IMG/VR virus record: IMGVR_UViG_3300021387_000087
DNA length: 64,000 nt
Reading direction: 5' to 3' (one strand)
Origin: a virus
Lineage: Duplodnaviria; Caudoviricetes
This document shows positions 4,245-39,341 of this stretch, one piece after another. Positions within the stretch are counted from its first letter, which is position 1. The number at the start of each line of letters is the position of its first letter. The notes beneath the pieces are model-generated. The model saw only the letters and a list, made by a program, of their open reading frames with translations, had not been told where the DNA came from and did not search any database. A program made the position numbers and the translations under genes.

Positions 4245-4264
4245 TGGACTACCTCCTATTCACA

Positions 4265-4846: not shown

Positions 4847-4884
4847 AATTCTTTACTCCTTTTAAATCCAATATTTAATTATTA

Positions 4885-5988
4885 TTAGGCGGGAAGAGTC
4901 CACATACCGAAATAACGACCAAGCTGAACGCCCACGCCGAAGCCACGGGTCATTTCATACTTCATAACGTCATCCCAACGACCGTTCTCTTCACCCTTCT
5001 CGGTGACCTGATAAATCTCGGTCTCACCCTGATCAACGACCTTGACAAACTTATCCTCGATAACAGGCAGAATAAGTAAAATCTTATCATCAAAAGCTTT
5101 CTGAGTCAGGGACTTATCCAAATAACGCTGAGGAATCTCAACCAGCTCAGTTCCCTCGTAAGTACCAAGTCTACCAGTATTAGCAACAGACTCCTTCTGA
5201 GACTGTGCTCTCCAGTCAACATCAGTCAGAGCGTTCAGTTTCTTCAGAGCAGTTTTAGTACCAACAATAATAGCTTCACACCCATTAATGGTTTCGACTT
5301 CTGTGATAATCTCATCAAAAGTATCTTTAACCAAAGTGTTATTACCAATCAGAGTAGGAGAAGCGGGAAGCTTCTTATAAGCATCGCCAAATGCCGCATA
5401 AATCTGATTAATAAGTTCAGTCTGGAATGCCTTAGCAACTGCATTCACCAGTGCAGCCCAATCTTCTTGACCAACAAGATAACGATCAATCTGTGCGCCA
5501 ACAGCAGCACCATAGACTTCCTGCTTAACAGTAAATCTTTCGCCCCTGCCAAGTCTCTGGAGTACGAAATCATGATGCTGACCAGAAACCTTAGCAACAC
5601 TCAGAAGAGTGTCATCCTCAGTTACGAATTCAATAATATCATCATTGGCGATAGAACGTCTGTCAACATACTGCATGAAGAAATCGTTCTCACGAAGTCC
5701 TTCCTCAATCTTCAGATCAACAACTTCCTCGATAACTTCAAACAGCTCTTCGCCGTGCTTACGCATTGCACGATGCAGAGTGCGTTTAGTAGGCTTCTCT
5801 TCATGAATATCAAGAATCTGATAAACGAATTTTCTCAGCTTATCATTAGCTTCCTGCTTACCAATAACCTTGCCATCATCAACAATATCATTGCCCATAG
5901 CAAGATCAAACATCAGATTGCGAACAGACTCATAAGGAGTCTCCGCAAAGATATTTCTAAGGTGTTCAGTAGAAAATACTTTAATCAT
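4885..5988 (-). CDS. Major capsid protein (SPbeta YonB-like position)
   Basis: 367 aa, follows protease/scaffold and decoration genes, highly-expressed-type codon usage. Confidence 0.8.
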   Translation of the reverse strand: MIKVFSTEHLRNIFAETPYESVRNLMFDLAMGNDIVDDGKVIGKQEANDKLRKFVYQILDIHEEKPTKRTLHRAMRKHGEELFEVIEEVVDLKIEEGLRENDFFMQYVDRRSIANDDIIEFVTEDDTLLSVAKVSGQHHDFVLQRLGRGERFTVKQEVYGAAVGAQIDRYLVGQEDWAALVNAVAKAFQTELINQIYAAFGDAYKKLPASPTLIGNNTLVKDTFDEIITEVETINGCEAIIVGTKTALKKLNALTDVDWRAQSQKESVANTGRLGTYEGTELVEIPQRYLDKSLTQKAFDDKILLILPVIEDKFVKVVDQGETEIYQVTEKGEENGRWDDVMKYEMTRGFGVGVQLGRYFGMWTLPA

Positions 5989-6016
5989 ATCGCTTTATCC
6001 TCCTTTCTATAGTCTA

Positions 6017-6478
6017 TTACGCTGCAACGACATACTTGCCGTCTGCAAAAGATACTGTCTTGCCAACAGCGGGTATACCTTGGAATCCCTCGACAGACAT
6101 CTCAAAGATATCGCCCTTAACCAGAGAATAACCCTTAACAACATCACCAGTCTTATTCACCCATGCTTTAGGATTTTCGGTCTGAGGAATATCATAAGGA
6201 GTAATTTCAGGCATCAGAATCCAAAGCGCCTCTGTAGCTTCAGTAACTTCAACATACCAATTACCATTAGCGGCCTGCTCAACAATCTTACCCGCAAAAG
6301 TAGGAGCAGCCGCCTCTTTATAAGTACCAAGTTTAATGTAATCGCCACGACCAACCAGTTCACCATTATCGTGATCAGCAGTCAGTTCGATATCAAAAAT
6401 GTGTCCACCACCATTAGCTGCAAGCAGTCTGGAAGGGAACGCTTCGTTATGTGTAAAAACAAAAGCAATATCAATCAT
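6017..6478 (-). CDS. Putative capsid decoration/stabilising protein
   Basis: 153 aa beta-rich ORF between scaffold and capsid genes. Confidence 0.55.
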   Translation of the reverse strand: MIDIAFVFTHNEAFPSRLLAANGGGHIFDIELTADHDNGELVGRGDYIKLGTYKEAAAPTFAGKIVEQAANGNWYVEVTEATEALWILMPEITPYDIPQTENPKAWVNKTGDVVKGYSLVKGDIFEMSVEGFQGIPAVGKTVSFADGKYVVAA

Positions 6479-6512
6479 AACGTTTAACTCCTTTCTTAAA
6501 ATTTAATAAATA

Positions 6513-8165
6513 TTAGTCAAAGAGATTTCCATATCTCTTGTTGCTATCAGCAGATTTTCCCTCAGGAACTCTAAATAGAGAGAACTTGTGCTGATTAGTG
6601 TCCTTTGCGACATGCGTCTTTTTGCTATTGGATTTAGCATAAGAAAGCAGAAGAGCATCGCATTTAGCTTGAATTTCATCAGCAGAATATTCAGAAGCCT
6701 TTGCTTTGATTTCTGCAAATTCGGCAGAACCAGAAATATCATTCCAATCTTCAGAATTAATAATTGCTTCTTTACGAGAATCTTCTTCGGCTTGCTGATA
6801 TTTAGCCAATTCATCAGACATAGCAGAATACTTAGAACGCATATTCTCAATTTCAGCTTCCTCAGTATCTGTTACATAAATTGCATGAACAGGTATTCTG
6901 TCACCCTTGAGAGAGAAGACGCCAGCACGTTCGCCATAAGACTGACGATAAGCACTACCAGCCCAAATGTCTACCATTACAAGTTCTTTATCATAAACAA
7001 TTACATTGTAATAAGTGTTATCAGCCTCAGAATAAGCATCATTAACCAGAGTAGAAAGCGCATAAATTTTATCATTCAGAGACACAGCAAATTCTTTGCC
7101 ATTAACACTATAGGCGATAGAGTTGTCAATCTTTTTAACTGGTTCATCATCATCTTGTGCACCATCTTCACCTTCGTCCGCTTCAGGTTCAGGATCTGTT
7201 TCAGGCTCTTCGGGTTCTGCTTCTCCCTCAGAATCATCACCTTCAGCACCCTCATCTCCAGATTCAGGATTATCTTCAAAATTCGATTCAGGAGTAGGAT
7301 CAGCTTCAGCATTACCAAACATCTCTTCGAATTTAGCTTTCAGCTCTTCATCTGTCAGATTATCATGCTCAAAAGTGATATCTTCAGCAGTCACATTGTA
7401 CTGCTCCAACAGTTGCTCAAATAAGCCCATATCATCTTTTCCTCCTTTCATAGAATTTTGATCTATCTCAAATGTGGCTTTATCCACATTGAAATTTAAT
7501 AAAGATATATTAGCACCTTCCATGGCTGGCTCTACTGTCGAACCATCTTCATAATATCCAAGGATAGTAATTCCTTTAAACACAAAATCATCAATATTTA
7601 AAATCTTTTCCTTGGCATCATATGAAAAATCATAAACATCAATTTCTACAGATACAGGACATTGACCGTCCGCATCCATAAGAATTTCAGGTGCTTTTGT
7701 GTACCCCTCATAAAGATAAGCATCTGTTTCAATATATTCTTTATCTTTATCAGCATCATATACTAATTCTGGTTTAGCATCGGTAGGAACATGACCTACA
7801 GGAATCTCATCATAAACAATTTCCCCATTTTCACCCTCGTGCATTGCATGCCAACCAAAAACATTTTTCTGCTCTCCATCAATCTCAAGCTGATGGATAT
7901 ACGCTAAAATAGGTCGATTCTTAATACTTTTTAAGTTCTTTTTCATAGAACTGTAAGTAATCTGACTTCTATTTCTATTTTTACCTACGTGAGCAGCTTT
8001 TAAATGCGCTTTTACAAGACCATCTTTATCTGTATCTTTATTAAAAGATAGAGATCCCTCAAGCCCGATAGCCACAAATGAGCCACCAAATTCGTCTTTA
8101 GAAAACTTCAGATTACTTCCTTTATTTACCAGATAATCATAAAAAGCGTCTATACTAATAAACAT
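6513..8165 (-). CDS. Prohead protease-scaffold fusion (YonD-like)
   Basis: HVGKNRNRS, VSVEI, GITILG and EPAMEGA protease-type motifs, then an acidic linker and coiled coil; GGAGG RBS before ATG 8165. Confidence 0.75.
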   Translation of the reverse strand: MFISIDAFYDYLVNKGSNLKFSKDEFGGSFVAIGLEGSLSFNKDTDKDGLVKAHLKAAHVGKNRNRSQITYSSMKKNLKSIKNRPILAYIHQLEIDGEQKNVFGWHAMHEGENGEIVYDEIPVGHVPTDAKPELVYDADKDKEYIETDAYLYEGYTKAPEILMDADGQCPVSVEIDVYDFSYDAKEKILNIDDFVFKGITILGYYEDGSTVEPAMEGANISLLNFNVDKATFEIDQNSMKGGKDDMGLFEQLLEQYNVTAEDITFEHDNLTDEELKAKFEEMFGNAEADPTPESNFEDNPESGDEGAEGDDSEGEAEPEEPETDPEPEADEGEDGAQDDDEPVKKIDNSIAYSVNGKEFAVSLNDKIYALSTLVNDAYSEADNTYYNVIVYDKELVMVDIWAGSAYRQSYGERAGVFSLKGDRIPVHAIYVTDTEEAEIENMRSKYSAMSDELAKYQQAEEDSRKEAIINSEDWNDISGSAEFAEIKAKASEYSADEIQAKCDALLLSYAKSNSKKTHVAKDTNQHKFSLFRVPEGKSADSNKRYGNLFD

Positions 8166-14088: not shown

Positions 14089-14144
14089 GCAATCACCTTC
14101 CTTTTTTATCACTTTAATCCGTCAAAAGTTAGTTACATAAGAAA

Positions 14145-14220
14145 TAGCAGAGACAAGATTTGAACTTGTGACCTCCAGCTTATGGGGCTGGCGAGATAGA
14201 CCGAACTTCTCCACTCTGCG
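14145..14220 (-). tRNA. tRNA-Met(CAT), initiator-like acceptor stem
   Basis: Cloverleaf CGCAGAG.../CTCTGCT-A, anticodon arm CCAGC-CCCATAA-GCTGG, T arm ACAAG-TTCAAAT-CTTGT; no encoded CCA. Confidence 0.85.
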
Positions 14221-14230
14221 ATATAATAAA

Positions 14231-19986: not shown

Positions 19987-21549
19987 TCACCATTTATCAA
20001 TACCTGCAAGAACATTAATTTCCTTCTGGACTACATCGTACCAATTACCCAAATTTTTGCGCCTGTTCTTGCCGTTACCATATCGTTTTACGATAGAAGA
20101 ATTGCCATTAAGCAAACCTTCCGCAATTTTATAAACCCAGTTTACTTTTGCTTGAACTTCTGTTGCGTTATAACCCGCTTTAGTCAACTTAGTAAACCGT
20201 TCTGTACCATCAACTGCGCCTTTCCCGAATTTTCCTTGATATACTTGCTGAACAATGTCGGGGGTTACTTCTTTAAAAACAACAGGCACGACAGCAGTTT
20301 GCTTTTGATCTGTTTGTTTATCAATTATTTTTTCTTCGGTAACAATCTTCTTACTACCAGAAGAATCTACAATATATTCAATATCGAAAGCGATTTCATT
20401 ATTAACGCATTCAAGAATACCATTCCATGGATAACTATAGTACATTCTTAAATGACTTTCGCCACGACCATATTTCTCATCGTATTCTCCAACTTGTTTC
20501 TGATCACCTTGTTTACCACCAGTAGCAGTGCCTTTCTCATTAATACTGAATTCCATTAATACATCGGGTTCTGCACTAAGGCACATAGCAGTATGACAAG
20601 TTTCATTTAAATAAACATCACCCATTTGAGCGATAAATGACATGGGACGCCATTTAAAATTACCCGTTCCAGTCATACATTTCCTCATATTGCCTGTATA
20701 TGTTGCACCACCACAGCTAATTCCAGCAGCTTCAAATGCGGATATAACAGCAGAAGAGCAATCTCTATCACCAGATTTAATGGTATACTTTCTTCCATAA
20801 ATATCAATTGTTTCTGTTCCTTTACCCCAACGTTTATCCATGTCTTGCGTGTAACCATGATCTTTATGAGTACAAAGATGTTTCATAATTAACATGGCAA
20901 CTTCTTTTTTATATACATGATAAACCTTTTTCACAGGCTCAGTAGTTGAACCTTTTACAGCATTTTCAGCTTTAGTATAAAAAGGTACATACCAGACAGA
21001 TTCATCTACATTACCCGCAATACCCGGAATATGCGCTCTAGAAGTAAACTGCCATCCATCCATAGAATAAGACGGCTTATATTTAATTTCTTGTTTGCCA
21101 GAATTTGTTCCATAAGCTGGAATCCATCTACGGCATTCAAATCCTTTTAAAGGATCACGCCAATAAGCCTGACCTGCATATACACCAGAATTGTTACCAA
21201 ATTCTTTTAGCCACGCAGTAGCCGCTTGTTTATTTAAATGACGCAAATTCCATTCTTCTAAATCAAGCCAATGTGAAACAGGATGGTATTCTTTAGTAAC
21301 CCTTTTCTCATGCTCAATTTCACTTTTGATTTGATTAGTACTTCCAGCATAAGAATACAAATATGTTCCATAGGGGATACCATATTTTTCACATTGCTCT
21401 ACATTATATTTAAAATATTTATCATCCTGTCGTGACGAATTGTCTCCATATCCAGTGCGCAGAATCGCACCGTCAATGTAATCCTTAACACGCTTCCAAT
21501 CAATTTTTCCTTGATGCTCAGACACATCAATAATTCTCTGCTCAGCCAT
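19987..21549 (-). CDS. Endolysin: GH25 muramidase + Cys/His amidohydrolase + CW_7-like binding repeats
   Basis: IDVSEHQG, WLDLEE, WQFTS; DRDCSSAV...HTAM; GKFGKG..R...L...GY...VQ..VN repeats. Confidence 0.85.
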   Translation of the reverse strand: MAEQRIIDVSEHQGKIDWKRVKDYIDGAILRTGYGDNSSRQDDKYFKYNVEQCEKYGIPYGTYLYSYAGSTNQIKSEIEHEKRVTKEYHPVSHWLDLEEWNLRHLNKQAATAWLKEFGNNSGVYAGQAYWRDPLKGFECRRWIPAYGTNSGKQEIKYKPSYSMDGWQFTSRAHIPGIAGNVDESVWYVPFYTKAENAVKGSTTEPVKKVYHVYKKEVAMLIMKHLCTHKDHGYTQDMDKRWGKGTETIDIYGRKYTIKSGDRDCSSAVISAFEAAGISCGGATYTGNMRKCMTGTGNFKWRPMSFIAQMGDVYLNETCHTAMCLSAEPDVLMEFSINEKGTATGGKQGDQKQVGEYDEKYGRGESHLRMYYSYPWNGILECVNNEIAFDIEYIVDSSGSKKIVTEEKIIDKQTDQKQTAVVPVVFKEVTPDIVQQVYQGKFGKGAVDGTERFTKLTKAGYNATEVQAKVNWVYKIAEGLLNGNSSIVKRYGNGKNRRKNLGNWYDVVQKEINVLAGIDKW

Positions 21550-21578
21550 AAGCATCCCCTTTCTACATACTAAAAATG

Positions 21579-21608
21579 CCCACCACACCTATGACAGTGT
21601 GATGGGCT
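21579..21608. terminator. Hairpin after HU gene
   Basis: GCCCAcCACAC...GTGTGaTGGGC with a T-run on the minus strand. Confidence 0.5.
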
Positions 21609-22100: not shown

Positions 22101-24743
22101 TTAGTCACTTTTAAAACATTGCAAGAACTGTTCTGGATTTAAAGTATATAAAACTTTCAATAGAATTGCTCTATTGTTATGAGTTTTACTTGTAGGAGCG
22201 CCACCAATATTTTTTATATTCTGTGTAATAACAAAAGCTCTATCTATTAAATAAGACATAAGCCCTATATATTTCTTTCCAAATTTAATTTCTCTAATAT
22301 CAGCTATTAATTGATCGAAATCATTGCGTAATAATAAAATATCTTCTTGAGAATCGTTATCGCCTTTCCGATTATATTGGTCTAATTTAAAACTATACTT
22401 TTCAATTAGTTTTTCAACTTTTCTGTTATTGTATTTTGTATCATTATCATAATGTTTTATAAAAAAATGCTCCATCAGAATTGGTTTAACATAATCTGCT
22501 AAAGTTGGATTAATGTTCATATTATAAAGAACATTCATCGGACAACGTATAGATCCGTTATATTTATCAGCACTAATATTTAACGAACCCATGCCATTGC
22601 GTTTATTATTATATTTCTGAATAGGCTTAAAAAATATCGGGTAACCATTGGCTTTAATATTTAAGTCTCTTTGAATTCTTTTTGTCTCTTCATTTAAATC
22701 AATATCATAAGCACGCTTACTTGAATCTATATATATTTGTGCAAGAACAGATAATATACTTACATAATCTTGATATTTTTTATCTGGAAAGGTATAAGAG
22801 TAGGAAAGTGCTATTTGCGCTAAATTAGATGATAACCCTATTCCCATTTGTGAAGACATTAACTTGTTGTCTATATTTGATAAATCTAAAGCCGTATTTT
22901 TATAACGTGTTGTATCTTTGGGAATATTGTTTTTTATTGTGGGAAATTGTAGTTGGCAATTTCTTGCATGAGAAACTATTGCGGATTGATTTGTAACATA
23001 AATTGTATCTCCGTCCATATCTGAGCCATTGTTTCTCTCTTCGAATACAGTTTCTCGCATATTTATTGCTATGCAATTTTTCCCTAAATAGAAATATTTT
23101 TTTATCCTCCAGTCCAAACGATTTTTCAAATAACCCATATTATTGGGACTATTAAAAGGACTCCTCATTTCACACAATAATTCCCCGTCTTCAAATCGTT
23201 CACTATAACATTGAATCGCTAATTCTTCCTGCTCAAACGTAGGATCATCTTCGGGCTTTTCTCCTACGGCAAACATTAACTCAGCATAAGGCGAACCAAC
23301 TATTGTCATATTATCGCCATTATTGATTATCCGTCCTGTCTTACTCATTTTTACATAAGACTTGATGATATTTGAACGCCGTTGTCTAAAATAACTAGAC
23401 CTTACAAAATCTTTATTGTGCTTTACCAAAGCCAATAGCACATCATAATCATTAGAAAAATTAACACCACGCCTTAAATAATCTAAAAACACATTGTCAT
23501 CAGTTTTTAATTTATATATATAATCCTTAGTACATTGGACAATACTCTCCATAATTTCTTCAGACATACAATTAACATGTTGATAACTCATCTTCTGGAC
23601 ATTACCCAATTTAGATTTTTTGGCAGTTTTTACAATCCCGAAATAACTATCATTATCTTCGATAACTCGTTTACACCAATAATCATAGTTGATTCGACCA
23701 TTCTTAAACTTAATCCACTTCATAGCCGATTCGTGACAAATGATTTTTACATCTTTAGCATAATGCTCATGACCAAATATATCTGTCAATTTCCACGTCT
23801 CATAATCAATCCCGTGTTCAGCAGCGTAATCTCTAAAAAACCCCTGAATGTCGGTATCAAAACATGCCATCTTGCAAAAATGATTTCTAAGAAGAACAAA
23901 ACCGTTAATTTTTGGGAACTGTTCACGAACAAAATTATGATCAATCAATCCTTGCCCATCAAACATTGAATTGCTAATCTTAGCATTTTCACGCTTTACT
24001 GCATGTACGTGCCCATCTTCACCTTTTTCAATACTTATAATATCTTTAAAGCAATAAGAGTCATAATCATCAAGTACCAATATATCATAAGGATTAACCT
24101 TAATTTTCCCAATAATTGTACTCGTAGCCAGAGAAGAATAGGCTTCAGCTTCAACCAATAGCGGATTTTCATACTCATTAAGATCAATCCCCATATAAAG
24201 ATATTCTTTAGCTACATCGTACAATTCCTCTCTAATAAAATCTACAGTCCCCTTTTTAGCTTTGCCCGGTGTCCTGAACAGTCTTTTGTAATGAATCGTT
24301 TGTGATTCTTTACCTTTGCGAGCAGGAGGATAAGTAACATCTACACCTTCTGTGTAAACTTTATCTCTCGCTTCAGCACGATTATATCTAACATATTTGT
24401 CTTGATTTACTTCAGCCCTCGTTAGCAACTCATTAAAGTATTGTAGCTTTTGTTCTTTTTCCTCTTCACTTAATTTGTCGTTTTTCTCTGTATCTTTAAT
24501 ACATTTTTTAATATGTGCTTTTTCTTGTTCGTAGCTTCTTGTACCGTATTTAAAATCAAGAACAATTACATCTCTGGTTGAAGTATCTCTATAAATATCC
24601 AACCCATGTTTCTTCATATAATCTAAAAACAGACTATTACAAAGCATAGCGTCCGTCATATCAATATAATCACGGACGCCAGCATTCTTCTCTAAAAGGC
24701 TTCCAACAACGATGTTTTTAATCTTTATTCCGTATTCGCCCAT
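22101..24743 (-). CDS. YonO-like single-subunit two-barrel DNA-dependent RNA polymerase
   Basis: 880 aa; FDGQGL, LRNHFCK, RSPFN and catalytic GSDMDGD (DxDGD); sits next to HU as yonO-yonN do in SPbeta. Confidence 0.85.
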   Translation of the reverse strand: MGEYGIKIKNIVVGSLLEKNAGVRDYIDMTDAMLCNSLFLDYMKKHGLDIYRDTSTRDVIVLDFKYGTRSYEQEKAHIKKCIKDTEKNDKLSEEEKEQKLQYFNELLTRAEVNQDKYVRYNRAEARDKVYTEGVDVTYPPARKGKESQTIHYKRLFRTPGKAKKGTVDFIREELYDVAKEYLYMGIDLNEYENPLLVEAEAYSSLATSTIIGKIKVNPYDILVLDDYDSYCFKDIISIEKGEDGHVHAVKRENAKISNSMFDGQGLIDHNFVREQFPKINGFVLLRNHFCKMACFDTDIQGFFRDYAAEHGIDYETWKLTDIFGHEHYAKDVKIICHESAMKWIKFKNGRINYDYWCKRVIEDNDSYFGIVKTAKKSKLGNVQKMSYQHVNCMSEEIMESIVQCTKDYIYKLKTDDNVFLDYLRRGVNFSNDYDVLLALVKHNKDFVRSSYFRQRRSNIIKSYVKMSKTGRIINNGDNMTIVGSPYAELMFAVGEKPEDDPTFEQEELAIQCYSERFEDGELLCEMRSPFNSPNNMGYLKNRLDWRIKKYFYLGKNCIAINMRETVFEERNNGSDMDGDTIYVTNQSAIVSHARNCQLQFPTIKNNIPKDTTRYKNTALDLSNIDNKLMSSQMGIGLSSNLAQIALSYSYTFPDKKYQDYVSILSVLAQIYIDSSKRAYDIDLNEETKRIQRDLNIKANGYPIFFKPIQKYNNKRNGMGSLNISADKYNGSIRCPMNVLYNMNINPTLADYVKPILMEHFFIKHYDNDTKYNNRKVEKLIEKYSFKLDQYNRKGDNDSQEDILLLRNDFDQLIADIREIKFGKKYIGLMSYLIDRAFVITQNIKNIGGAPTSKTHNNRAILLKVLYTLNPEQFLQCFKSD

Positions 24744-24763: not shown

Positions 24764-25981
24764 TCACAACATTTGCAGTTTCTCAACTTGCTCTTTTAAA
24801 GCAGCCACAAACAATTTAATTTCGTATTCAGTCGTATTTCTATCCATACTAATACGAATCGTATTATTAATCTCTTTGTCTGTTAAACCAATTTCCTTCA
24901 ACACTTTACTCGGTTTCTTAACTCCTGCATGACAAGCACTACCAGCAGACACTTGACAACCCTCAAAAATATCCAAATTAGTTATTAGCTGTTCATTGTC
25001 AATTCCATTAAAAGTAACATTAACGATATTTGTCAATCCGTTATAGGGGCTATTAATCTTTATGTCATATCTTGTCATTAGGAAATCCAACAAAAGACTT
25101 CTACATCTTTTCAAATTCCTATTATCTTCATCAATAGTCTTATACGCTTGATCCATAGCCCGACCCATCATAACAATAGAAGGAGCGTCTTCAGTGCCAG
25201 ACCGCATTCCTTTTTCCTGACCACCACCATGCAGAAGCGGATTAATTTCAATGCCATTTCTTACATACAAAAAACCAACCCCATGAGGTGCGCCGAACTT
25301 ATGACCAGACACCGACATCATATCAATACCCATATCTTGTACGTCAATCTTCATATGCGTAAAAGCTTGAACTGCATCTACATGCAACACTCCATCATAC
25401 TTGTGTACAATTTTACTAATTGTCTTAATATCATTAATTGACCCAATTTCATTATTCGCCATCATAATTGACACAAGAATTGGATATTGTTTAACATTTG
25501 GCGTATAACGAATACGTTCTTCCAAAGATTCTAAATCAACCGTACCGCTATTATGACATTTCACTATATTCACACTATTGGCAATACTCATTTCATAAAG
25601 CCATACAGCAGGATTAATAACAGAAGGATGCTCAAGACTTGAGACAAAAATTGATGGTGTTAAACGATAATAATCAAACATCTTAGAAGACCCACGAGGA
25701 GCATTCCAATGATGATACTTCTCACAACACCACCCCTTAATCGCTAGATTATTGGCTTCTGTACCTCCAGATGTAAAGATAATCTTATCGCCATCCTGAC
25801 CATTAATACACTTCAAAATATCCTGTCGTACATCCTCAATAGCCTGTCGTGTCTTCATCGATCCCTGAGAGATAGAAGAGGGGTTCCACCAATATTCCCT
25901 ACATAAGGAGCCATACTCCTGTATCATTTCTTCCTCAGGCTGCATTGTAGCAGCGTTATCAAAATAAAGTGATGCTGACAT
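24764..25981 (-). CDS. iscS: Cysteine desulfurase (IscS/NifS family)
   Basis: YFDNAAT, FTSGGTEANN, EHPSV, HVDAVQ, SGHKF (PLP Lys), SAGSAC (catalytic Cys). Confidence 0.92.
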   Translation of the reverse strand: MSASLYFDNAATMQPEEEMIQEYGSLCREYWWNPSSISQGSMKTRQAIEDVRQDILKCINGQDGDKIIFTSGGTEANNLAIKGWCCEKYHHWNAPRGSSKMFDYYRLTPSIFVSSLEHPSVINPAVWLYEMSIANSVNIVKCHNSGTVDLESLEERIRYTPNVKQYPILVSIMMANNEIGSINDIKTISKIVHKYDGVLHVDAVQAFTHMKIDVQDMGIDMMSVSGHKFGAPHGVGFLYVRNGIEINPLLHGGGQEKGMRSGTEDAPSIVMMGRAMDQAYKTIDEDNRNLKRCRSLLLDFLMTRYDIKINSPYNGLTNIVNVTFNGIDNEQLITNLDIFEGCQVSAGSACHAGVKKPSKVLKEIGLTDKEINNTIRISMDRNTTEYEIKLFVAALKEQVEKLQML

Positions 25982-26423: not shown

Positions 26424-26777
26424 TCATTCCTCAACCTCCACAGTGTATAATGGTTTTTTAAAATCATGTACAGATGTAAAATGCATATCTATATCTAAAT
26501 ATCGATTCGCTACAATTCTATATATCTTGTCTCCATTATGATTATAAGTACAATAATCATCTTGATTAACTTCTATCTGTATATCAGATTCAGCAATAAC
26601 TTTAGAAGTAAATACCATACCATTCATTTTCAGTTTCAAATAAAATGGCTTATTCTCATTAATATCAATAGCGCTCATATCAAAATACGAAGTGCCACAA
26701 TAAGGACAAGTATTTAATTCTGTTTTGTACGGTGCCCCGCAGTTAGGACAATTTCTTTGACTCATTTTCAACCTCAT
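26424..26777 (-). CDS. Zinc-ribbon protein
   Basis: CPNCG...CPYCG at the N-terminus; coupled to the radical SAM gene. Confidence 0.6.
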   Translation of the reverse strand: MRLKMSQRNCPNCGAPYKTELNTCPYCGTSYFDMSAIDINENKPFYLKLKMNGMVFTSKVIAESDIQIEVNQDDYCTYNHNGDKIYRIVANRYLDIDMHFTSVHDFKKPLYTVEVEE

Positions 26778-27663
26778 TCCGAATCACTTGAAACATCTCA
26801 TCAACAGTTTTATTTCCAATAGGATAATGGATTTCCGACAGACTACTTCTTGCAAACGTCCCATTTACCAAATCAATATAAAACGTAATAGTGCCATCAT
26901 CACCCGCATAAAACATTTCCCAATCTTCATCAGAAAGTTTATCTCTCATATGAAGTTGCTCAAGTGCAAGATTATCAAAAGATACAACGTCAAAATGATC
27001 TGTCAATCGCATAATATCCTGTTCAAGAAAATAAATCTTGGATTCAATATTATACATATGATCCTTATAAAAATTATTGCCACGACCTTTATGTTTATAT
27101 CCCAAAATAAGAAGTTTTAGTCCCTTATCCATCATATATTTAATATCGGTTTGTTTAACAACACCTGCAATTACATGAATAATGGCATTAGGATATTCTT
27201 TAACAGTATCAATAAATCCCTCTTCGGTAGGATTAACTAAAGAAATACCAATTCCCTTAATCAAATCCATTTTATATAGAAACTTAATAAACTGCTGACC
27301 ATACTCACTCATAAAATGTCTCTGATTAATTGTTGCATTGACAAACACATTCTGGGCTTTCATGGTATATAAAAATTCCATCAAATCGGGGGGTGTAGGA
27401 AACTGAAGATTAATCGCAAGTTCTGTATAAGGATGCATGGTATGCAGAAATTTCCAACTTGTTAAATCACCATGCTTACCAGTAGGAGAGCATCCCGCAT
27501 AGCAAAATTCACATCCATTATCGCAACACTGCGAAATTTGAATATCACAGGATTCTGAGAAATCATAATAGAAATCATCATCATTTGTTACGTGAAATTT
27601 TGTTCCATCATCAAAAATTGTGGTAATTGTATTACCATTCTTATATGTAGCAAGTTCTTTCAT
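26743..27663 (-). CDS. Radical SAM protein
   Basis: CDNGCEFC (CxxxCxxC); no obvious C-terminal SPASM cysteines. Confidence 0.88.
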   Translation of the reverse strand: MKELATYKNGNTITTIFDDGTKFHVTNDDDFYYDFSESCDIQISQCCDNGCEFCYAGCSPTGKHGDLTSWKFLHTMHPYTELAINLQFPTPPDLMEFLYTMKAQNVFVNATINQRHFMSEYGQQFIKFLYKMDLIKGIGISLVNPTEEGFIDTVKEYPNAIIHVIAGVVKQTDIKYMMDKGLKLLILGYKHKGRGNNFYKDHMYNIESKIYFLEQDIMRLTDHFDVVSFDNLALEQLHMRDKLSDEDWEMFYAGDDGTITFYIDLVNGTFARSSLSEIHYPIGNKTVDEMFQVIRNEVENESKKLS

Positions 27664-27672
27664 TACATCTCC

Positions 27673-27972
27673 TTAATGATCTTCTTTTGCATAGCTTATA
27701 CCAACTACTTTATCGCCATGGTCTGTAGTATAATGCTTTATTTCATAGTCTGCTTCTTCGTCAAAATAACTATCTCTATAGCGCCAACTTTCTAACTCTT
27801 TCTCTGTCAGACCTTGTATACTAACCCATTTTTCATCCCATATATCCCATTTATAATTATCATCTTCATCCATCTTCATTAATGCGTCATATTCTTTTTT
27901 TGGCATAATTATTAACGAATGCGAGAGGGATGAATTAGTTTCCCAAACACCGTATCTTATATTCTTTTTCAT
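27673..27972 (-). CDS. ETNSSS-motif protein 4
   Basis: MKKNIRYGVWETNSSLSHSL. Confidence 0.75.
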   Translation of the reverse strand: MKKNIRYGVWETNSSLSHSLIIMPKKEYDALMKMDEDDNYKWDIWDEKWVSIQGLTEKELESWRYRDSYFDEEADYEIKHYTTDHGDKVVGISYAKEDH

Positions 27973-27987
27973 TTTATTTTAACCTCA

Positions 27988-28401
27988 CTACTCTGAAATA
28001 TACTGTGAAACAGCAACTACAACATCGCCACTAGGAGTCGTTAATTCTTTTATAATACTATCGCCTACATCGTCATCTGAATGTGCAAAACGGGCATACT
28101 GAAAACGATTCGCATAAAAATCAAAAATTTCATTATCAGTTAAATCAATGAAATCTTTACTCTTTTCCCAACGACCCGATTCATAATCTTTTTTAAACCA
28201 AGAGTTTTCTCTACCCTGTTGAATAATATCTTTTTTAGAAATCCATTCATTATTCCATGTATCCCAAAACCAATCGGGATCATATCGTTTTTTATCAGCT
28301 TCTCGCTCTTGTTTAAGATAATCTTCTTTAAGCATAAGAGTGAGTGTATGCTGACTACTTGAATTTGTTTCAAAAGTCTTATATCTAATTTGTGTTTTCA
28401 T
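27988..28401 (-). CDS. ETNSSS-motif protein 3
   Basis: MKTQIRYKTFETNSSSQHTL. Confidence 0.75.
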   Translation of the reverse strand: MKTQIRYKTFETNSSSQHTLTLMLKEDYLKQEREADKKRYDPDWFWDTWNNEWISKKDIIQQGRENSWFKKDYESGRWEKSKDFIDLTDNEIFDFYANRFQYARFAHSDDDVGDSIIKELTTPSGDVVVAVSQYISE

Positions 28402-29452
28402 TAAGCACCACCTGTCTATTCACATCAGCAAGAAACTTGTTAATCCTATCATAATCAGGATTAGCAGGAAGTTCCGTATGTTCTTTCCAGTATTCTAATT
28501 TACTCTCTAAATCATCTACAATATCATAAAACTCTGGAAGTGGATGATCCTCGTCATCAAGGTACTTGCCATTCCTGATATCCATAAGAAAATCGTGTTC
28601 TTTCGCACGATATGTAATAATCTCACCTTTTTCAAGAATATCAAAACACATCAGATAAAGCCGTACCAGATGCATCATATGCTTTCCAAGTTTGCCACGT
28701 TCAATCGCTTTACGATTCCGCGCACCAATTTTTGCATATTCTTTAACAATTGCAACCATTTCTGACCACATAGACTTATAATCTCGAAGCGGATAGTGCT
28801 TCAAGTTAACATCCATGAAAATCTCAGTGTCGTAATCAGGATTTACCGCTTCATCAATATATAATTTAATTGCATCTTCTGGATATTCAAAAAACTTTGT
28901 AGGAAAAGTATATTTGGCATTTTCAATACTACGCAGAATAAACTCTTCACGCTTAGTCTGTTCCATAGTTCTAGCGGCACGGTTTTCGAGCCTACGAAGC
29001 TGTGACGAGGCATAACCGCCAAAAGAATGAATAGCACGCTTAGAAAGAAACATATCCCTGTTATCAATCAAAGCCTGACCAATATCTGTCACATAAAAAT
29101 ACTGCCAAGGCTCAAGACCAAGAATTTCAATTGTATTAGGATTGCAATTGGAGAGAAGATTAACAATTTTCTCAAGAGAATAAACAGTAGTATCTGTTTC
29201 TTCATTTACAACTTGCTCAAATCCCTTACGAGTAAGAATGTCCTCTGCGCTATGAGTAGCCACACCACGCACATCGATATCACTATTTTCATTATTGGTG
29301 CCATAGGCATAGCTGCCACCAAGTCCCAGAAGAACAATATTGTCGCCCAAAGGCTTTTCCCGCAAAAACTTGTATCTTTCATCTTCATACAACGCTGTTT
29401 GAATATCTTCTACAACCATTGCGATTTCTAAATCATCTGCTGTTCTAATCAT
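28385..29452 (-). CDS. Pol-beta-superfamily nucleotidyltransferase (RlaP/YcgL-like)
   Basis: GGSYAYGTNNENSDIDVRG, NPNTIE, KHMMHLVRL. Confidence 0.85.
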   Translation of the reverse strand: MIRTADDLEIAMVVEDIQTALYEDERYKFLREKPLGDNIVLLGLGGSYAYGTNNENSDIDVRGVATHSAEDILTRKGFEQVVNEETDTTVYSLEKIVNLLSNCNPNTIEILGLEPWQYFYVTDIGQALIDNRDMFLSKRAIHSFGGYASSQLRRLENRAARTMEQTKREEFILRSIENAKYTFPTKFFEYPEDAIKLYIDEAVNPDYDTEIFMDVNLKHYPLRDYKSMWSEMVAIVKEYAKIGARNRKAIERGKLGKHMMHLVRLYLMCFDILEKGEIITYRAKEHDFLMDIRNGKYLDDEDHPLPEFYDIVDDLESKLEYWKEHTELPANPDYDRINKFLADVNRQVVLNENTN

Positions 29453-29944
29453 TTAATCACACCTTGTCTCCAATCCAACATATTTATTAAAAATAAATTC
29501 AACACACGCTTGAGAATCCCAAAGACTTACTATACAATTATCATCACACCAACCACCATCCAGCTGTTGATGATCAAAATAATCATAAGCTTCTTCCCAT
29601 TTACATTCATCTACTTTAACACCACGACATAACACGCCGTTATGTTTTGTTACATATTTCCCAAATGCTTCATTAAAATAGTTTATAATATATCCTTTAT
29701 CCTCAATCTTTTCTATATCAAAGTTATAATAAGCATACAACCATGTCATGATATATTTTAATTTTGTTTTCTGATTAAAGAACTGAGCCTCATCCTTGCC
29801 AAAATACTGATCCAAAGTGATATGCACATAACCATCTTCATGGATTTTCATATGACATTTTTCTAATCCTCTTTTACTAAAACAGAAGCTATGCACACTA
29901 CTGCTATTAGTCTCCCAAACATTACTCCGAATCTGTGTCTTCAT
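29453..29944 (-). CDS. ETNSSS-motif protein 2
   Basis: MKTQIRSNVWETNSSSVHSF; DHQ motif. Confidence 0.75.
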   Translation of the reverse strand: MKTQIRSNVWETNSSSVHSFCFSKRGLEKCHMKIHEDGYVHITLDQYFGKDEAQFFNQKTKLKYIMTWLYAYYNFDIEKIEDKGYIINYFNEAFGKYVTKHNGVLCRGVKVDECKWEEAYDYFDHQQLDGGWCDDNCIVSLWDSQACVEFIFNKYVGLETRCD

Positions 29945-30770
29945 CTATCCAATCTCCATTTTCATCAAAATCTTCGGGATGCTTTTCTTTATATAATTCC
30001 CAATCATAAGACCCCTCTTTTGGGTATTTAATCTGAATTGCGTTTTTATCCACAATTCCAGCTTCTAACATAGTGCCAAAAATATCACACTCATCGCCAT
30101 CTACGATAACCACGATATCTTTACGAATTAAGTAATCCTCAAGAGTGATATTATATTTTTCCAGAAATCGTTGAAAAAGTCCTACACTCTGATGATCCAC
30201 GCTTCCGAACTTAGGTACCTCTAACCAGATTTCTTCCTGCTTACGACCAGAATTACAGATTTCTTTATAATAAGGTTCTGAATCCTTATTGTAATAACTC
30301 CAGTTTCCATTGCGAACCAAATCATCGTATGGAACTTCTTCATAAGTTGTATAATCCTGATTCAAATCATCTGTTACAGTGTCTGAATATACACGAAATC
30401 TCTCTGAATCCATGTATGGTTCTACTTTGTCAACTCCAATTAGTTTCTTTAAAAGTGGCTCAAATACCTCATGAAATGTATTTTCACCTCGAATATAACT
30501 CTCTAAGCTATAACAACTTCCGCACATAGAAGCCAAAGCATAAGATAGCTTATCCCGAAAAGATGTAAGAACATCGAACTCTCTACCGAATTCTTTATTA
30601 CAATCGTGCATCAACTGAAGAGTGTGCTTATCTTTATTCCAATCCTCATCAAGATAATACTCATCTCGAATTTCTTTCTGAGTCATTGTCTGACGCTTTT
30701 TCATAATCAAAAGACTGTGCATTGATGAAGAATTAGTCTCCCAAGCCCCTTTTCTTACCGTCATTTTCAT
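29922..30770 (-). CDS. ETNSSS-motif protein 1
   Basis: MKMTVRKGAWETNSSSMHSL; DHQS motif. Confidence 0.75.
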   Translation of the reverse strand: MKMTVRKGAWETNSSSMHSLLIMKKRQTMTQKEIRDEYYLDEDWNKDKHTLQLMHDCNKEFGREFDVLTSFRDKLSYALASMCGSCYSLESYIRGENTFHEVFEPLLKKLIGVDKVEPYMDSERFRVYSDTVTDDLNQDYTTYEEVPYDDLVRNGNWSYYNKDSEPYYKEICNSGRKQEEIWLEVPKFGSVDHQSVGLFQRFLEKYNITLEDYLIRKDIVVIVDGDECDIFGTMLEAGIVDKNAIQIKYPKEGSYDWELYKEKHPEDFDENGDWIDEDTDSE

Positions 30771-30921
30771 AAATAAAATCTCCTTTTAATTATATATTCT
30801 TTATTCATCCATCTAATCATTATCACATCTTTACAGGGATAAAAACGTGGTTTGATATACCACAATAGCCTGTCAAGTTCTTTACAAATATCTTTCATAT
30901 TATCACCTCACAACTATATAT

Positions 30922-30949
30922 AGTATATCAAACCACACAAAAATGTCAA
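30922..30949 (-). promoter_or_regulatory. Sigma-A-type promoter upstream of the ETNSSS/radical SAM operon
   Basis: TTGACA-16 nt-TATACT with extended -10 TG. Confidence 0.65.
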
Positions 30950-33786: not shown

Positions 33787-34404
33787 TTATACCTCTTCAT
33801 TAATAATATTCATCTGACAAGACTTCATTGTCATCAATGCTACTCTATGAAGTTCTGGGGTGGTACCTGCGCAACACGATGCATCAATAGTGATTTCTGC
33901 TTCGGGGAATGCCTGACGAAGTGCAAAAGCATTAGAGACTACACAAATATCAGTGCAAACGCCTATCAGCTCAAATTCAAGGTCTTCTCCTTTATAATCC
34001 AAAGGAACATACATATCCAAAAATGAATTCAAAAGATCAACCACTGTTCTCCAAACATTACCCTCAATTGCGAAATTTCCTTTAACAATAGTATTGTATC
34101 CTTCTTTTCCTTTAATCCACGGATGTCGTCCAGTCGCATGAACAGTATCTAGAATATCTTTCACAATATCCAACCCTCTATTACTTTGACAATGCGGAAC
34201 TGGTAAATAACGTCCTTCTCTTGTTTGCGGATAATCATCTTCATCATGCATATCCATCGTAAAAATTAAACGGTCATAATCTTTAACCTTAATCTTCTCA
34301 ACGACCTTTGGTACAATTGCCTGTGCTTCTGGAGTACCAAGAACGCCACTGATGAAATCATTTTGCATATCAATTACCATTAGAATTTTCTTTCTTTTGT
34401 TCAC
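33787..34404 (-). CDS. Isochorismatase-family cysteine hydrolase, nicotinamidase (PncA)-like
   Basis: IDMQNDF, DMH, PHC, GVCTDICV; overlaps the end of cas12f. Confidence 0.82.
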   Translation of the reverse strand: MNKRKKILMVIDMQNDFISGVLGTPEAQAIVPKVVEKIKVKDYDRLIFTMDMHDEDDYPQTREGRYLPVPHCQSNRGLDIVKDILDTVHATGRHPWIKGKEGYNTIVKGNFAIEGNVWRTVVDLLNSFLDMYVPLDYKGEDLEFELIGVCTDICVVSNAFALRQAFPEAEITIDASCCAGTTPELHRVALMTMKSCQMNIINEEV

Positions 34405-35767
34405 TTTTCTTTTTACTCCCTTCGTCTTCTTTAATAAAATTTTGTGACATCGCTATATTTCTAGCAGCATTAAAATCTGCATTAATATATTTTTGATTGC
34501 TATAAATTTTATGACAGATACACTCTGGATTGGTACAAATAAACTCTTTTTGCGTTTTCCGAAGTCCCCTTTCACCACAGACAGAACATGTCTGGGACGT
34601 GTATTTTGGATTAATCTTTCTCACTTCAATCCCGTGTATAGCAGCCTTATACTTAATCTTTTCTTGTAAATCATAATAAGACCAATTCCGCAGAATCATT
34701 TTTGAATGTTCATCATCTTTTACATGACCATATTTATCACGACCAAAGCCCGACAAATCTTCTATATTAATATATTTTGCTCCATTCTTGACTGCAAAAT
34801 CTACTACTCTGCGACTAACCATATGAGAATATGTTTGGACAAAATTTTTCTCCCGCTTTTTCAAACGATCTAATGCACGAAGTTTTTTCTGTCTACCATG
34901 ACCGCCTTTACTATCTTTCAATGCATGCTGTAAACGTCTTCTTTCATTCTGTATCTGAGTTCTAATTCGTAAGAACTCATCTGCGCTTCCAATAGCCAAA
35001 CGTTTATAGTAGTCATTATTTAATGCGCACATTGCAGGAACCGCTTGCCCCAAGTCTACGCCTAATACGACATCTTCATTCAAAGCAGTTTCAACTTTTG
35101 GCACTTCTAATGTAAGATTGATAATAATCTTTGTTCCTTTGATTTCTATTGTGCTACCACCAACTTTATATTCTTCTGTAAAAATTCGTTTAAAAACTTC
35201 CCGCTGTTCTTTACTACGATAAGGATTCCCAAATCGAAACTTAAAAGTAATATTGTTACAAAACTTAATAAGAACTTCTGGCTTCATATCATTTTCCAAA
35301 GCTTCAAAAAGTTTTGCTGGAGTTTCATAATTATGATAGATACCATTATCATCTTTTTTAGTGCCACGAAGTGCAACAAAATTTACATGTACAATTAAAG
35401 GATTGTTGCTTCTGTAAGTTGGTAATGAGATACGCCCATACATCAAACCCTTTTTACAAGCATTATCAAAATCTTGCTTAACTTTTCTACTTGCAGAAGC
35501 TGCAATTGGTAGACCCACAGGAAATTTTATATCTTTTGTATATCCACTGCCCTTTTTACTATTGGTAACTCTCTGAAACAAATTATTTAATTCTTTTCTA
35601 TCTTCCAATGACATTTCATAAGACTTTGCCATAAATAAATGAGATATATATTCATTCATAGCTTTATTTTGTGCTTCAATGCCCTGTTTTAACCATGTAT
35701 ATACTCTATTAATTTCTTCTTTATCTCCAACTACTTGAAGTTCATATTTTCTTGTTAAATTTGGCAT
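34370..35767 (-). CDS. cas12f: Cas12f-family (type V-F, C2c10-like) RNA-guided nuclease, 465 aa
   Basis: RuvC-I GVDLG, RuvC-II IEDLS, CSVC zinc finger, RuvC-III NADFNAARNIA; GRISLPTYR, GGHGRQKKL and LRNWSYYDLQ segments recall Cn/AsCas12f1; 36 bp from a CRISPR array. Confidence 0.88.
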   Translation of the reverse strand: MPNLTRKYELQVVGDKEEINRVYTWLKQGIEAQNKAMNEYISHLFMAKSYEMSLEDRKELNNLFQRVTNSKKGSGYTKDIKFPVGLPIAASASRKVKQDFDNACKKGLMYGRISLPTYRSNNPLIVHVNFVALRGTKKDDNGIYHNYETPAKLFEALENDMKPEVLIKFCNNITFKFRFGNPYRSKEQREVFKRIFTEEYKVGGSTIEIKGTKIIINLTLEVPKVETALNEDVVLGVDLGQAVPAMCALNNDYYKRLAIGSADEFLRIRTQIQNERRRLQHALKDSKGGHGRQKKLRALDRLKKREKNFVQTYSHMVSRRVVDFAVKNGAKYINIEDLSGFGRDKYGHVKDDEHSKMILRNWSYYDLQEKIKYKAAIHGIEVRKINPKYTSQTCSVCGERGLRKTQKEFICTNPECICHKIYSNQKYINADFNAARNIAMSQNFIKEDEGSKKKSEQKKENSNGN

Positions 35768-37985: not shown

Positions 37986-39341
37986 TTAACTCCATTTAAT
38001 TTTAACATTATTTTTCTTGCATGCTTCCAACACTTTAGACCATTCATACTTTTTAAAAGTAGTAAGTACTCTAATAACGCCAGCATTATCACCCCAAGCA
38101 CCCTTTCCAATTTCTTTTGCAAGAACATCAAGACTAACTTTCTTTCTGCGATTAACTTCATCAACGGCACCCTGACCCATTTGTCGATAATCTCCAAGCG
38201 CTTTAGCACGAGCGTCACCAGACCCAAAATATCCATTGATAATCGCGGCTGCAAAAGCATATTTCAAAGCCGTCTTATCTTTATTTAAAATATTAACTCG
38301 GTTCTGAATCGCTTTAGCATTATTGGCACCAAACAAAGCGGTAAGAGTATTACTGCGCTGAGGGTCTTTACCATAAGCACCAGCAAACACCTTGCATGCG
38401 TATGCCGTAGTTTGGATCAAATTAAGCTGCTTATTAATAGCCTTATACTTAATCCACTTAATCTTAGTAAGACTCTTTTCTGCATAAATAGAAGCATAAC
38501 CTTCATCATAAATATCACATGTAATATTTCCATACAAATAATTTCCAAGCACTCGGCAACCAGCTGTATTAAATCTATTAATAACCATTGTGCGCCCAGA
38601 ACTTTTATAACTGCTATGATAATCCAACAGACCATACTTAGCGCCCATAGCTTTACAAAACGCTAAACTGCTTGCATCCTGATCTCCATGCCACTGTACA
38701 TGTACAAAATCAGGCTTTAGCGGATTCTTTCCATATCGTTCAATAAACTGATTATTCGCTTCTTTTGCGTTATCACCACCACCATAATAAGTCCATGTGC
38801 GACCATGAATATCTGTCAGAGTAAACAACGTACCAAGAGATGTATTATTTACATAATGATGCGAATCTACTTCTTTCAGCTTCTTATAATTAGACCTAAA
38901 AATTACATTGCATTTAATATTGCCAACTTTGAAACCATCACCTTCTGTAATATAATGAACATTCTCTTCACCACATTCTGTGATACACTGCTTGCGAATT
39001 TTATCTATATAATTCGCACGACCTTTAAGAGAAGAGTGATACAAAAATGGCTCTTTAGATGGAAGATAAAAAGATTTTACTTTAAACGCCTTTGTATATC
39101 TTGTTGTATCCCCCATATGGTCTTCATGTGGATGTGTAAATACAACAGCATCAACTTCTCCAGATTTAATAATAGATTGATACGCTTTTAGTGCATCACA
39201 ATCCGCACTACCAGTATCAATAATTACACAATGTGCAACATTACCTTTATCATCATATTCAATAATTGCAGTACTACTTCCCGACTCTTCAGAATGATAC
39301 TTAAAAAGTGACGGTTGAAAAATACAAAATCTCTTACTCAT
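37986..39341 (-). CDS. Metallo-beta-lactamase-fold hydrolase (ComEC/Pce-like) with C-terminal CW_7-like repeats
   Basis: IIDTG, THPHEDHMG, NNTS, GGD, WHG; GAYG/GYFG/GAWG repeats. Confidence 0.75.
   Translation of the reverse strand: MSKRFCIFQPSLFKYHSEESGSSTAIIEYDDKGNVAHCVIIDTGSADCDALKAYQSIIKSGEVDAVVFTHPHEDHMGDTTRYTKAFKVKSFYLPSKEPFLYHSSLKGRANYIDKIRKQCITECGEENVHYITEGDGFKVGNIKCNVIFRSNYKKLKEVDSHHYVNNTSLGTLFTLTDIHGRTWTYYGGGDNAKEANNQFIERYGKNPLKPDFVHVQWHGDQDASSLAFCKAMGAKYGLLDYHSSYKSSGRTMVINRFNTAGCRVLGNYLYGNITCDIYDEGYASIYAEKSLTKIKWIKYKAINKQLNLIQTTAYACKVFAGAYGKDPQRSNTLTALFGANNAKAIQNRVNILNKDKTALKYAFAAAIINGYFGSGDARAKALGDYRQMGQGAVDEVNRRKKVSLDVLAKEIGKGAWGDNAGVIRVLTTFKKYEWSKVLEACKKNNVKIKWS

Follow-up and report, generated by a model that had tools for sequence, protein, structure and literature searches.

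A phage radical-SAM enzyme is paired with otherwise divergent proteins that share an N-terminal ETNSSSxH tag

In the maturation of ribosomally synthesized and post-translationally modified peptides (RiPPs), one radical S-adenosylmethionine (SAM) enzyme acts on several precursors that share a conserved N-terminal recognition stretch. Likewise, a single enzyme of the anSME/AtsB type matures many divergent paralogues via a short invariant Ser/Cys motif near the N-terminus, and the activases of glycyl-radical enzymes, such as PFL-AE, are small enzymes without auxiliary clusters that take a loop of a folded protein into the barrel. Here, we analysed a 64,000-nucleotide stretch of phage DNA (IMG/VR record IMGVR_UViG_3300021387_000087; the whole stretch is called the window below), in which four otherwise divergent proteins with the same N-terminal motif, ETNSSSxH (the tag), are encoded on the minus strand together with a radical-SAM enzyme. 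We put the probability at roughly 0.6 that, in this system, one radical-SAM maturase serves several tag-bearing folded protein substrates.

The closest logic is that of anSME and the sulfatases, or of a RiPP maturase and its several precursors, because one enzyme serves paralogues that share a Ser-rich motif. This general logic of maturase and substrates is known; none of the libraries and papers searched contained the tagged family, its fold, the clade of enzymes free of auxiliary clusters or the pairing itself. RiPP maturases (SkfB, SuiB-SuiA, CteB, ChlB-ChlA and EpeE) were the best structural matches to the phage enzyme (Z 13-17), and the way in which they bind the leader resembles the predicted pairing of tag residues 2-6 with the N-terminal sheet of the phage enzyme. 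Unlike these maturases, the phage enzyme has no cysteines for a SPASM/twitch auxiliary cluster, and it has three strands in place of a winged-helix RiPP recognition element (RRE), which it resembles in the strand-pairing mode alone. The putative substrates also differ from RiPP precursors, in that they are folded proteins of 95-365 aa whose conserved stretch would itself lie in the active site and which have no conserved Cys, Lys/Trp or other known cross-link partners. Compared with anSME, the phage motif is ETNSSSxH rather than (C/S)xPxR, the tagged proteins have neither a sulfatase or alkaline-phosphatase fold nor any fold match in the PDB, and the two auxiliary clusters that anSME needs are absent. 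PFL-AE was a weaker structural match (Z 9.4); the tag has no conserved Gly that could hold a stable radical, and it is N-terminal, whereas the radical domain of the glycyl-radical enzymes is C-terminal.

A preliminary description of the window had reported four open reading frames (ORFs) of 282, 163, 137 and 99 aa that start with MKxx(I/V)Rxxx(W/F)ETNSS(S/L)xH(S/T), and this start was confirmed in all four: tagged protein 1 (positions 29922-30770), protein 2 (29453-29944), protein 3 (27988-28401) and protein 4 (27673-27972, with the variant ETNSSL), all on the minus strand. A six-frame translation of the window contains exactly four copies of ETNSS, one per tagged ORF and all of them at residue 11. 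The first 60 nt are identical at only 31-39 of 60 positions among the four paralogues, and the codons at the Ser positions of the tag vary (TCT TCA TCA, AGC AGT AGT, TCA AGT AGT and TCA TCC CTC). Because the DNA beneath the shared stretch differs at synonymous sites, the stretch is not a recent DNA copy and the peptide is under selection. The two subtypes of the preliminary description were found to be real and general as well, since the ORFs of 80 related loci, once stripped of the tag, split into two classes. Class A (110 ORFs, including proteins 1 and 2) is marked by KLxY, DHQ and a C-terminal Asp, and class B (52 ORFs) by a C-terminus of the TTPSGDxVVAFGYYGYD type. Protein 1 is a long form of class A with KLSY, DHQS and a C-terminal extension, and protein 2 is the core form, ending in D163; proteins 3 and 4 fall into class B as divergent members, and in them the motif reads TTPSGDVVVA (close to the C-terminus) and TTDHGDKVVG, respectively. 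The bodies of the two classes have no detectable similarity and only the tag in common, and the smallest class B proteins (95-100 aa) keep little beyond the tag and one C-terminal motif. Among 102 class A sequences, R6, E11, T12, N13, S14, S15, Y64 and the last residue, D163, are invariant, while S16, H18, K61, L62, H125 and Q126 are nearly so. In 97 of 107 homologues, the Glu of the tag is residue 10 or 11, and over 136 distinct N-termini the conservation of R6, S16 and H18 is 100%, 97% and 97%, respectively. In the AlphaFold2 (AF2) monomer model of protein 2, with a predicted local distance difference test score (pLDDT) of 80, residues 1-12 are the sole poorly placed part (< 50), as expected of a free tail.

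The preliminary description had tied these proteins to the radical-SAM gene and named a lack of co-occurrence as grounds for refutation; such a lack was clearly not observed, and across genomes the pairing proved to be near-obligate in both directions. In 80 viral loci centred on relatives of protein 2 (81 sources in the counts), the enzyme was encoded alongside in 70 of the 81 sources, nearly always directly downstream and on the same strand, with long class A, short class A, class B and enzyme as the typical gene order; any other gene family was common to at most 19 loci of this set. All five of the tested records that have no enzyme nearby carry one elsewhere on the contig. In an independent set, drawn from bacterial genome assemblies, the enzyme was alongside in 39 of 47 loci, and most of the exceptions were cut contigs. 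In the reverse direction, with loci centred on the enzyme, between one and five tagged ORFs were present in 78 of 80. The smallest modules, seen in five loci (L019, L043, L052, L055 and L057), consist of the enzyme and a single tagged gene. In five others (L014, L018, L020, L090 and L091), a single tagged protein of ~161-164 aa adjoins a NifS gene with no radical-SAM gene nearby, and the two of these records that were checked have the radical-SAM gene elsewhere on the contig. Furthermore, four natural fusions (P0209, P0210, P0214 and P0217) place a class A tagged domain N-terminal to the enzyme family. The conserved core of the system is thus the tagged protein or proteins together with the radical-SAM enzyme.

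The enzyme gene next to the tagged array (306 aa; positions 26743-27663, minus strand; phrog_16999, 5e-31) is of the radical-SAM type, as had been proposed: the CxxxCxxC motif is present (C47, C51 and C54), and its three cysteines are invariant in an alignment of 22 diverse homologues, two of which have a longer first spacer. The family alignment contains 27 invariant columns. In the AF2 model (pLDDT 93), an N-terminal three-stranded sheet is followed by a partial TIM barrel; the strands span residues 3-9, 12-17 and 22-25, the barrel strand 38-42 comes next, and there are no helices between them, which differs from the PqqD-like winged helix of an RRE (three strands and three helices). Foldseek returned 33 matches to the model at E <= 1e-3, nearly all of them radical-SAM enzymes (anSME at E 2.8e-4), and the top VIA Z scores ran from 16.8 to 11. 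SkfB was the best structural match (Z 16.8, root-mean-square deviation 4.4, 274 residues aligned), and SuiB (Z 15.9), EpeE (14.0), ChlB (13.8), CteB (13.0), anSME (12.9) and PqqE (12.8) were also close, with viperin (Z 13.7) and BlsE (Z 13.1) ranking among these peptide- or protein-modifying matches. Judged from the predicted model, the closest fold relatives of the enzyme are therefore peptide- or protein-modifying radical-SAM enzymes. The window enzyme has no match to PF04055 even at E <= 1; the family member P0217 passes this model (34.2 against a cut-off of 29.5), and a homologue from Agrobacterium has a precomputed PF04055 match. A search of PDB sequences with the enzyme profile gave weak radical-SAM matches only, over positions 24-130 (best E 0.006). 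The GGE-type SAM-binding motif, which comes behind barrel strand 2, has the family consensus GGGNPL and reads NGND in several relatives. No cysteines for auxiliary Fe-S clusters (SPASM/twitch) are conserved in the alignment, which has only the three Cys of the cluster loop. With neither an auxiliary cluster nor a conserved Cys in the system, the known routes (thioether, Lys-Trp, formylglycine and Cys-dependent epimerase) are not directly transferable to this enzyme.

An interaction between a paralogue and the enzyme, as anticipated in the preliminary description, was supported by one controlled complex prediction, in which the enzyme was modelled with protein 2, a 4Fe-4S cluster and SAM alongside three controls. 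The complex scored 0.82, compared with 0.19 for the best control; the mark used was calibrated on solved complexes, of which 58 of 80 reached it, and on mismatched pairs, of which 2 of 110 did. The three runs of the complex share at least 75% of their contacts, and the pLDDT of the partner is at least 75. On the side of protein 2, the interface consists of residues 1-21 only, and on the side of the enzyme it consists of residues 19-31 and the C-terminal ends of the barrel strands. Residues 2-6 of the tag are predicted to pair with residues 21-25 of the enzyme, and the remaining tag would lie against those barrel-strand ends. The interface has 52 residues, among which are 16 of the 27 that are invariant in the enzyme family.

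The tagged family is large, and the libraries searched say little about it. A profile search from protein 2 found 2152 clusters (50% identity) at E <= 1e-3 and 387 at 1e-10, none of them named and none with a Pfam domain. The four proteins of the window and 102 homologues had no match in Pfam, NCBIfam, PADLOC, PDB sequences or PDB folds; the only library match was to phrog_28997 ('unknown function', E 7e-4), and the closest Atlas clusters of protein 1 are viral hypotheticals. A profile search of PDB sequences with the family gave 0 matches, fold searches of the PDB by Foldseek and VIA with the class A model (protein 2) gave nothing above Z 2.9, and a search of BFVD with this model returned uncharacterized viral proteins only. 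In the Atlas fold search, the protein 2 model matched a 261-aa viral cluster annotated as Tad2-like (PF11195, Thoeris anti-defence) at a borderline template-modelling score of 0.53 over 115 aligned residues. Two other candidates for the motif, a flavodoxin-like phosphate loop and the HxT/S pair of 2H phosphoesterases, were dropped, as no such fold appeared in the fold search and the spacing did not fit.

The system is also widespread, with more than 480 relatives of the enzyme in IMG/VR alone. A tblastn search with protein 2 against 50,697 GenBank phage records gave no match, probably due to divergence and low-complexity masking, and family members in GenBank phages were instead located by the motif adjoining the enzyme. 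The cultured Microcystis cyanophage Ma-LMM01 has the minimal pair gp130 and gp128, annotated 'Fe-S oxidoreductase', and the Prevotella Lak megaphages have the enzyme followed by four tagged genes. Further occurrences include phages binned with rumen and gut Clostridia assemblies and a 1.37-Mb contig of Agrobacterium rubi with four tagged genes and the enzyme, where no recognized phage gene was present within the 17 kb examined. Full-text literature searches found nothing relevant on ETNSSS, on phage-encoded radical SAM or on gp130 or an Fe-S oxidoreductase in Ma-LMM01, and the transcriptome paper on Ma-LMM01 does not mention gp128 or gp130.

The preliminary description had listed a target of the radical-SAM enzyme among several possible roles of the tag, and this role is favoured by what the analysis shows, namely the two-way co-occurrence, the fusions, the fold class of the enzyme and the predicted complex with residues 1-21; the modification itself is what we infer. 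In the mechanism that we propose, the enzyme would recognize the invariant tag (R6, F/W10, E-T-N-S-S-S and H18) on between one and five folded proteins that otherwise diverge. A beta-strand formed by tag residues 2-6 would join the third strand of the small N-terminal sheet of the enzyme, and through this strand pairing the E-T-N-S-S-S-x-H segment would reach the barrel mouth, next to the 4Fe-4S/SAM site. One residue of the segment would there lose a hydrogen to the 5'-deoxyadenosyl radical and end up with a post-translational modification. Several points weigh against a maturase acting on tagged substrates. The complex score is the model's own confidence, and the custom alignments and riding ligands depart from the calibration of the tool; moreover, relatives with a peptide in the barrel have already been solved (SuiB-SuiA, 5v1t; anSME with peptide, 4k38/4k39; ChlB-ChlA, 9gm3), and for this reason the pass may owe something to resemblance to these structures and be less than independent evidence. 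All four fusions are single-member clusters, in which read-through or assembly error may be at work, and they therefore lend modest support only. The SAM motif of the window enzyme is degenerate, with NLQFP where the consensus is GGGNPL, and the enzyme is without auxiliary-cluster cysteines, unlike every close structural match that oxidizes or cross-links peptides. Class A bodies keep invariant residues of their own (K61, Y64, H125, Q126 and the C-terminal D163), and the tag could for this reason belong, as a loop, to the tagged protein's own active site instead of being a substrate. That the tag is a substrate and not a handle, like the modified residue, the chemistry and the biological role, is something that we infer.

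If the tag were a docking handle, the tagged proteins would be interchangeable subunits, serving as adaptors or conferring specificity, whose N-terminus plugs into the enzyme, where the plug would complete the active site or bring in a substrate held by the body, such as a small molecule, a nucleotide or RNA. The co-occurrence, the fusions and the predicted interface fit this arrangement too, the residues K61, Y64, H125, Q126 and the C-terminal Asp of class A suggest a ligand site, and RNA-repair genes (polynucleotide kinase (PNK)-like, RNA ligase and RlaP) are present in the flanks of 48 out of 148 distinct loci, in 27 at a distance of no more than 1.5 kb, as raw counts without a background rate. 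We nevertheless consider it unlikely, since the most conserved residues of the tag are small polar side chains in the barrel mouth, where the substrates of relatives lie, and since class B proteins can be as short as 95-100 aa, with hardly more than the tag and one C-terminal motif; we also know of no radical-SAM enzyme with an N-terminal plug subunit. It is less probable still that the tagged proteins catalyse steps of their own in a small-molecule or nucleic-acid pathway shared with the radical-SAM enzyme, without contact between the two and with ETNSSSxH serving as an active-site or phosphate/metal-binding motif in a beta1 loop. Conserved motifs right after an N-terminal strand are typical of nucleotide- and phosphate-binding loops, E11, H18, D124 and H125 of class A could bind a metal, and the loci lie among genes of nucleic-acid metabolism. 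However, two dissimilar body classes that share the tag only are a poor fit to a common active site, and the monomer model leaves the tag unplaced. The complex prediction outscores its controls, and no part of protein 2 other than the tag is at the interface; fusions exist as well.

A processing or sorting signal that works independently of the enzyme appears very improbable. It could be a self-cleaving N-S or S-S site, which would leave a Ser or a pyruvoyl group at the N-terminus, or a peptide for capsid targeting that a prohead protease cuts after (V)(F/W)E. Ser-Ser and Asn-Ser bonds are classic sites of self-cleavage, and an 11-residue N-terminal peptide ending in hydrophobic-x-Glu may resemble the capsid-targeting sequence of T4 internal proteins with its (L/I)xE site. 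Yet such a signal would leave the near-obligate link to the enzyme and the fusions unexplained, the conservation is strongest after the putative cut (T12-S16 and H18), unlike that of targeting peptides, and the system also occurs on the A. rubi contig. The autoprocessing site and the heteromer assembly motif of the preliminary description are likewise not needed to explain the tag. Its remaining proposal, that the nucleotidyltransferase encoded within the array transfers a nucleoside monophosphate (NMP) to a tag serine, was not supported and strikes us as scarcely credible. The gene between proteins 2 and 3 (355 aa; positions 28385-29452, minus strand) is indeed a Pol-beta-type nucleotidyltransferase, with a core that reads GGS...SDIDV, and belongs to the RlaP family (PF10127, 6.3e-24, 85.5 bits against a cut-off of 23 over residues 38-175; phrog_388, 1.8e-54). 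The position of the gene favours NMPylation, as it stands in the middle of the array in the window, within the module directly before the enzyme in L001-L003 (where proteins 3 and 4 are absent) and immediately upstream of the module in L086 and L102. RlaP, however, was reported in a 2025 preprint, the only biochemical study of it that the literature search turned up, to add one or two NMPs to RNA 3' ends and to aid tRNA repair, with RNA as its only substrate among the macromolecules of Escherichia coli (PMC12776372). Furthermore, it is found within the flanks of 19 of 148 distinct loci (~13%) and is thus absent from ~87%, and in L004, a 61%-identical relative, its slot is taken by a treble-clef/NUMOD homing-endonuclease-like gene (L004:5587-6729).

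The replacement in L004 suggests that the RlaP slot is a hot spot for mobile inserts. The 355-aa RlaP shares the GS...DxD Pol-beta core and scores above the Pfam cut-off, and in other phages the module is flanked by RNA ligase and PNK-like genes, but RlaP is not a core part of the module of tagged proteins and radical-SAM enzyme; it is best read as an RNA-repair gene that was inserted into the array in this lineage, and its tie to the module may be positional only. At L086 (positions 4068-7240), the RlaP gene lies directly before a gene fusing a tagged domain to the radical-SAM enzyme, and the next genes encode a nucleoside 2-deoxyribosyltransferase-like protein and a split family-B DNA polymerase. 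The RNA-repair neighbourhood is a lead on the biology of the system, and a role in counter-defence is a guess from neighbouring genes. The 117-aa gene after the enzyme (positions 26424-26777, minus strand), which overlaps the enzyme gene by 35 nt, matches zinc-ribbon models (PF13248, 8.4e-07), in agreement with the preliminary description, and its homologues occur in 7 of the 81 sources only. The 405-aa gene further along (positions 24764-25981, minus strand) resembles NifS/IscS; it passes PF00266, the class-V aminotransferase fold family (208 bits, 2.5e-61), and scores 308 bits with TIGR03402 (6.6e-92), below the equivalog cut-off of 530.75, and its sequence places it, at the family level, among the cysteine desulfurases. 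With NifS genes in the flanks of 20 out of 148 distinct loci, NifS is a frequent accessory, which probably supplies sulfur for the Fe-S cluster. The nucleotidyltransferase, the zinc ribbon and NifS are therefore lineage-specific extras outside the conserved core.

On the minus strand of the window, the array runs from a 43-aa ORF through tagged proteins 1 and 2, RlaP and tagged proteins 3 and 4 to the CxxxCxxC enzyme and the zinc ribbon, and 3' of the zinc-ribbon gene it continues with two small ORFs, the NifS-like gene and the gene of an 880-aa protein. The packing is tight, with adjacent genes overlapping or at most 28 nt apart. The 43-aa ORF (positions 30767-30898, minus strand) overlaps the start of tagged protein 1 by 4 nt and has a weak match to phrog_6171 (E 7.7e-4). 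The array had been said to stand behind its own sigma-A promoter. A promoter-like site, TTGACA-16-TG-TATACT, does precede it (positions 30922-30949, minus strand) and is the best sigma-70-like site of the region (11 of 12 matches); it is a match to the consensus only, and such sites are no more numerous in the array region than in shuffled versions of it. Short contigs from a bovine-gut RNA library span parts of the array; because DNA can occur in such libraries, these were not taken as proof of transcription. Contigs from bovine gut also contain joints that skip positions 27647-28424, with proteins 3 and 4 (three runs), or 28418-29452, with the nucleotidyltransferase (one run). With flanks of just 24-48 nt, these joints are no more than a hint of natural variants that lack either proteins 3 and 4 or the nucleotidyltransferase, and the variants lacking proteins 3 and 4 agree with the gene order in L001-L003.

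The window is of phage character, as it encodes a portal protein, a terminase, a Mu Gam-like protein, an exonuclease and a GH25/CW_7 endolysin. Its proteins have near-identical copies on metagenomic contigs of about 156-159 kb, and its DNA has near-identical matches in bovine-gut metagenomes from several studies. CW_7 cell-wall-binding repeats are present in two proteins (positions 37986-39341 and 19987-21588, both minus strand), one of which is the GH25 endolysin and the other a protein of the metallo-beta-lactamase fold. These proteins point to a Gram-positive host, which fits the Lachnospiraceae and Clostridia assemblies that hold related loci. The 880-aa protein (positions 22101-24743, minus strand) has no Pfam or NCBIfam match and a strong match to phrog_8308 of unknown function (3.8e-79); it contains a DMDGD motif, which may resemble the metal-binding loop of YonO-type or two-barrel RNA polymerases. 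Elsewhere in the window, a TnpB/IS605 OrfB-like protein (positions 34370-35767, minus strand; OrfB_IS605, with a Cas12f1-like TNB domain at 4.1e-17) adjoins an isochorismatase-family gene (33787-34404), and one tRNA-Met with a CAT anticodon is encoded at positions 14144-14221 (minus strand). Between positions 52000 and 64000, the GC content rises from ~0.34 to 0.40-0.46 and the sign of the GC skew flips near 52 kb; the coding strand appears to switch there, and this may be a boundary between phage modules.

A wider proposal seems possible to us, though somewhat short of likely: a radical-SAM enzyme specific to phages would install a novel modification, possibly a protein-derived catalytic group, on the invariant Ser-rich loop at the N-terminus of a large family of folded proteins without a fold match in the PDB, and the system would be used by many large phages, including the Lak megaphages and Ma-LMM01, perhaps beside genes for RNA repair and counter-defence. 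Should the tag indeed be modified by the enzyme, radical-SAM chemistry directed at proteins would gain a new reaction, one that does without the auxiliary clusters on which the closest relatives of the enzyme depend and that acts on folded proteins instead of peptides. A direct test is feasible with one gene pair of a cultured phage, that of Ma-LMM01, and the system could bring to light a previously undescribed protein-derived cofactor or class of phage effectors.

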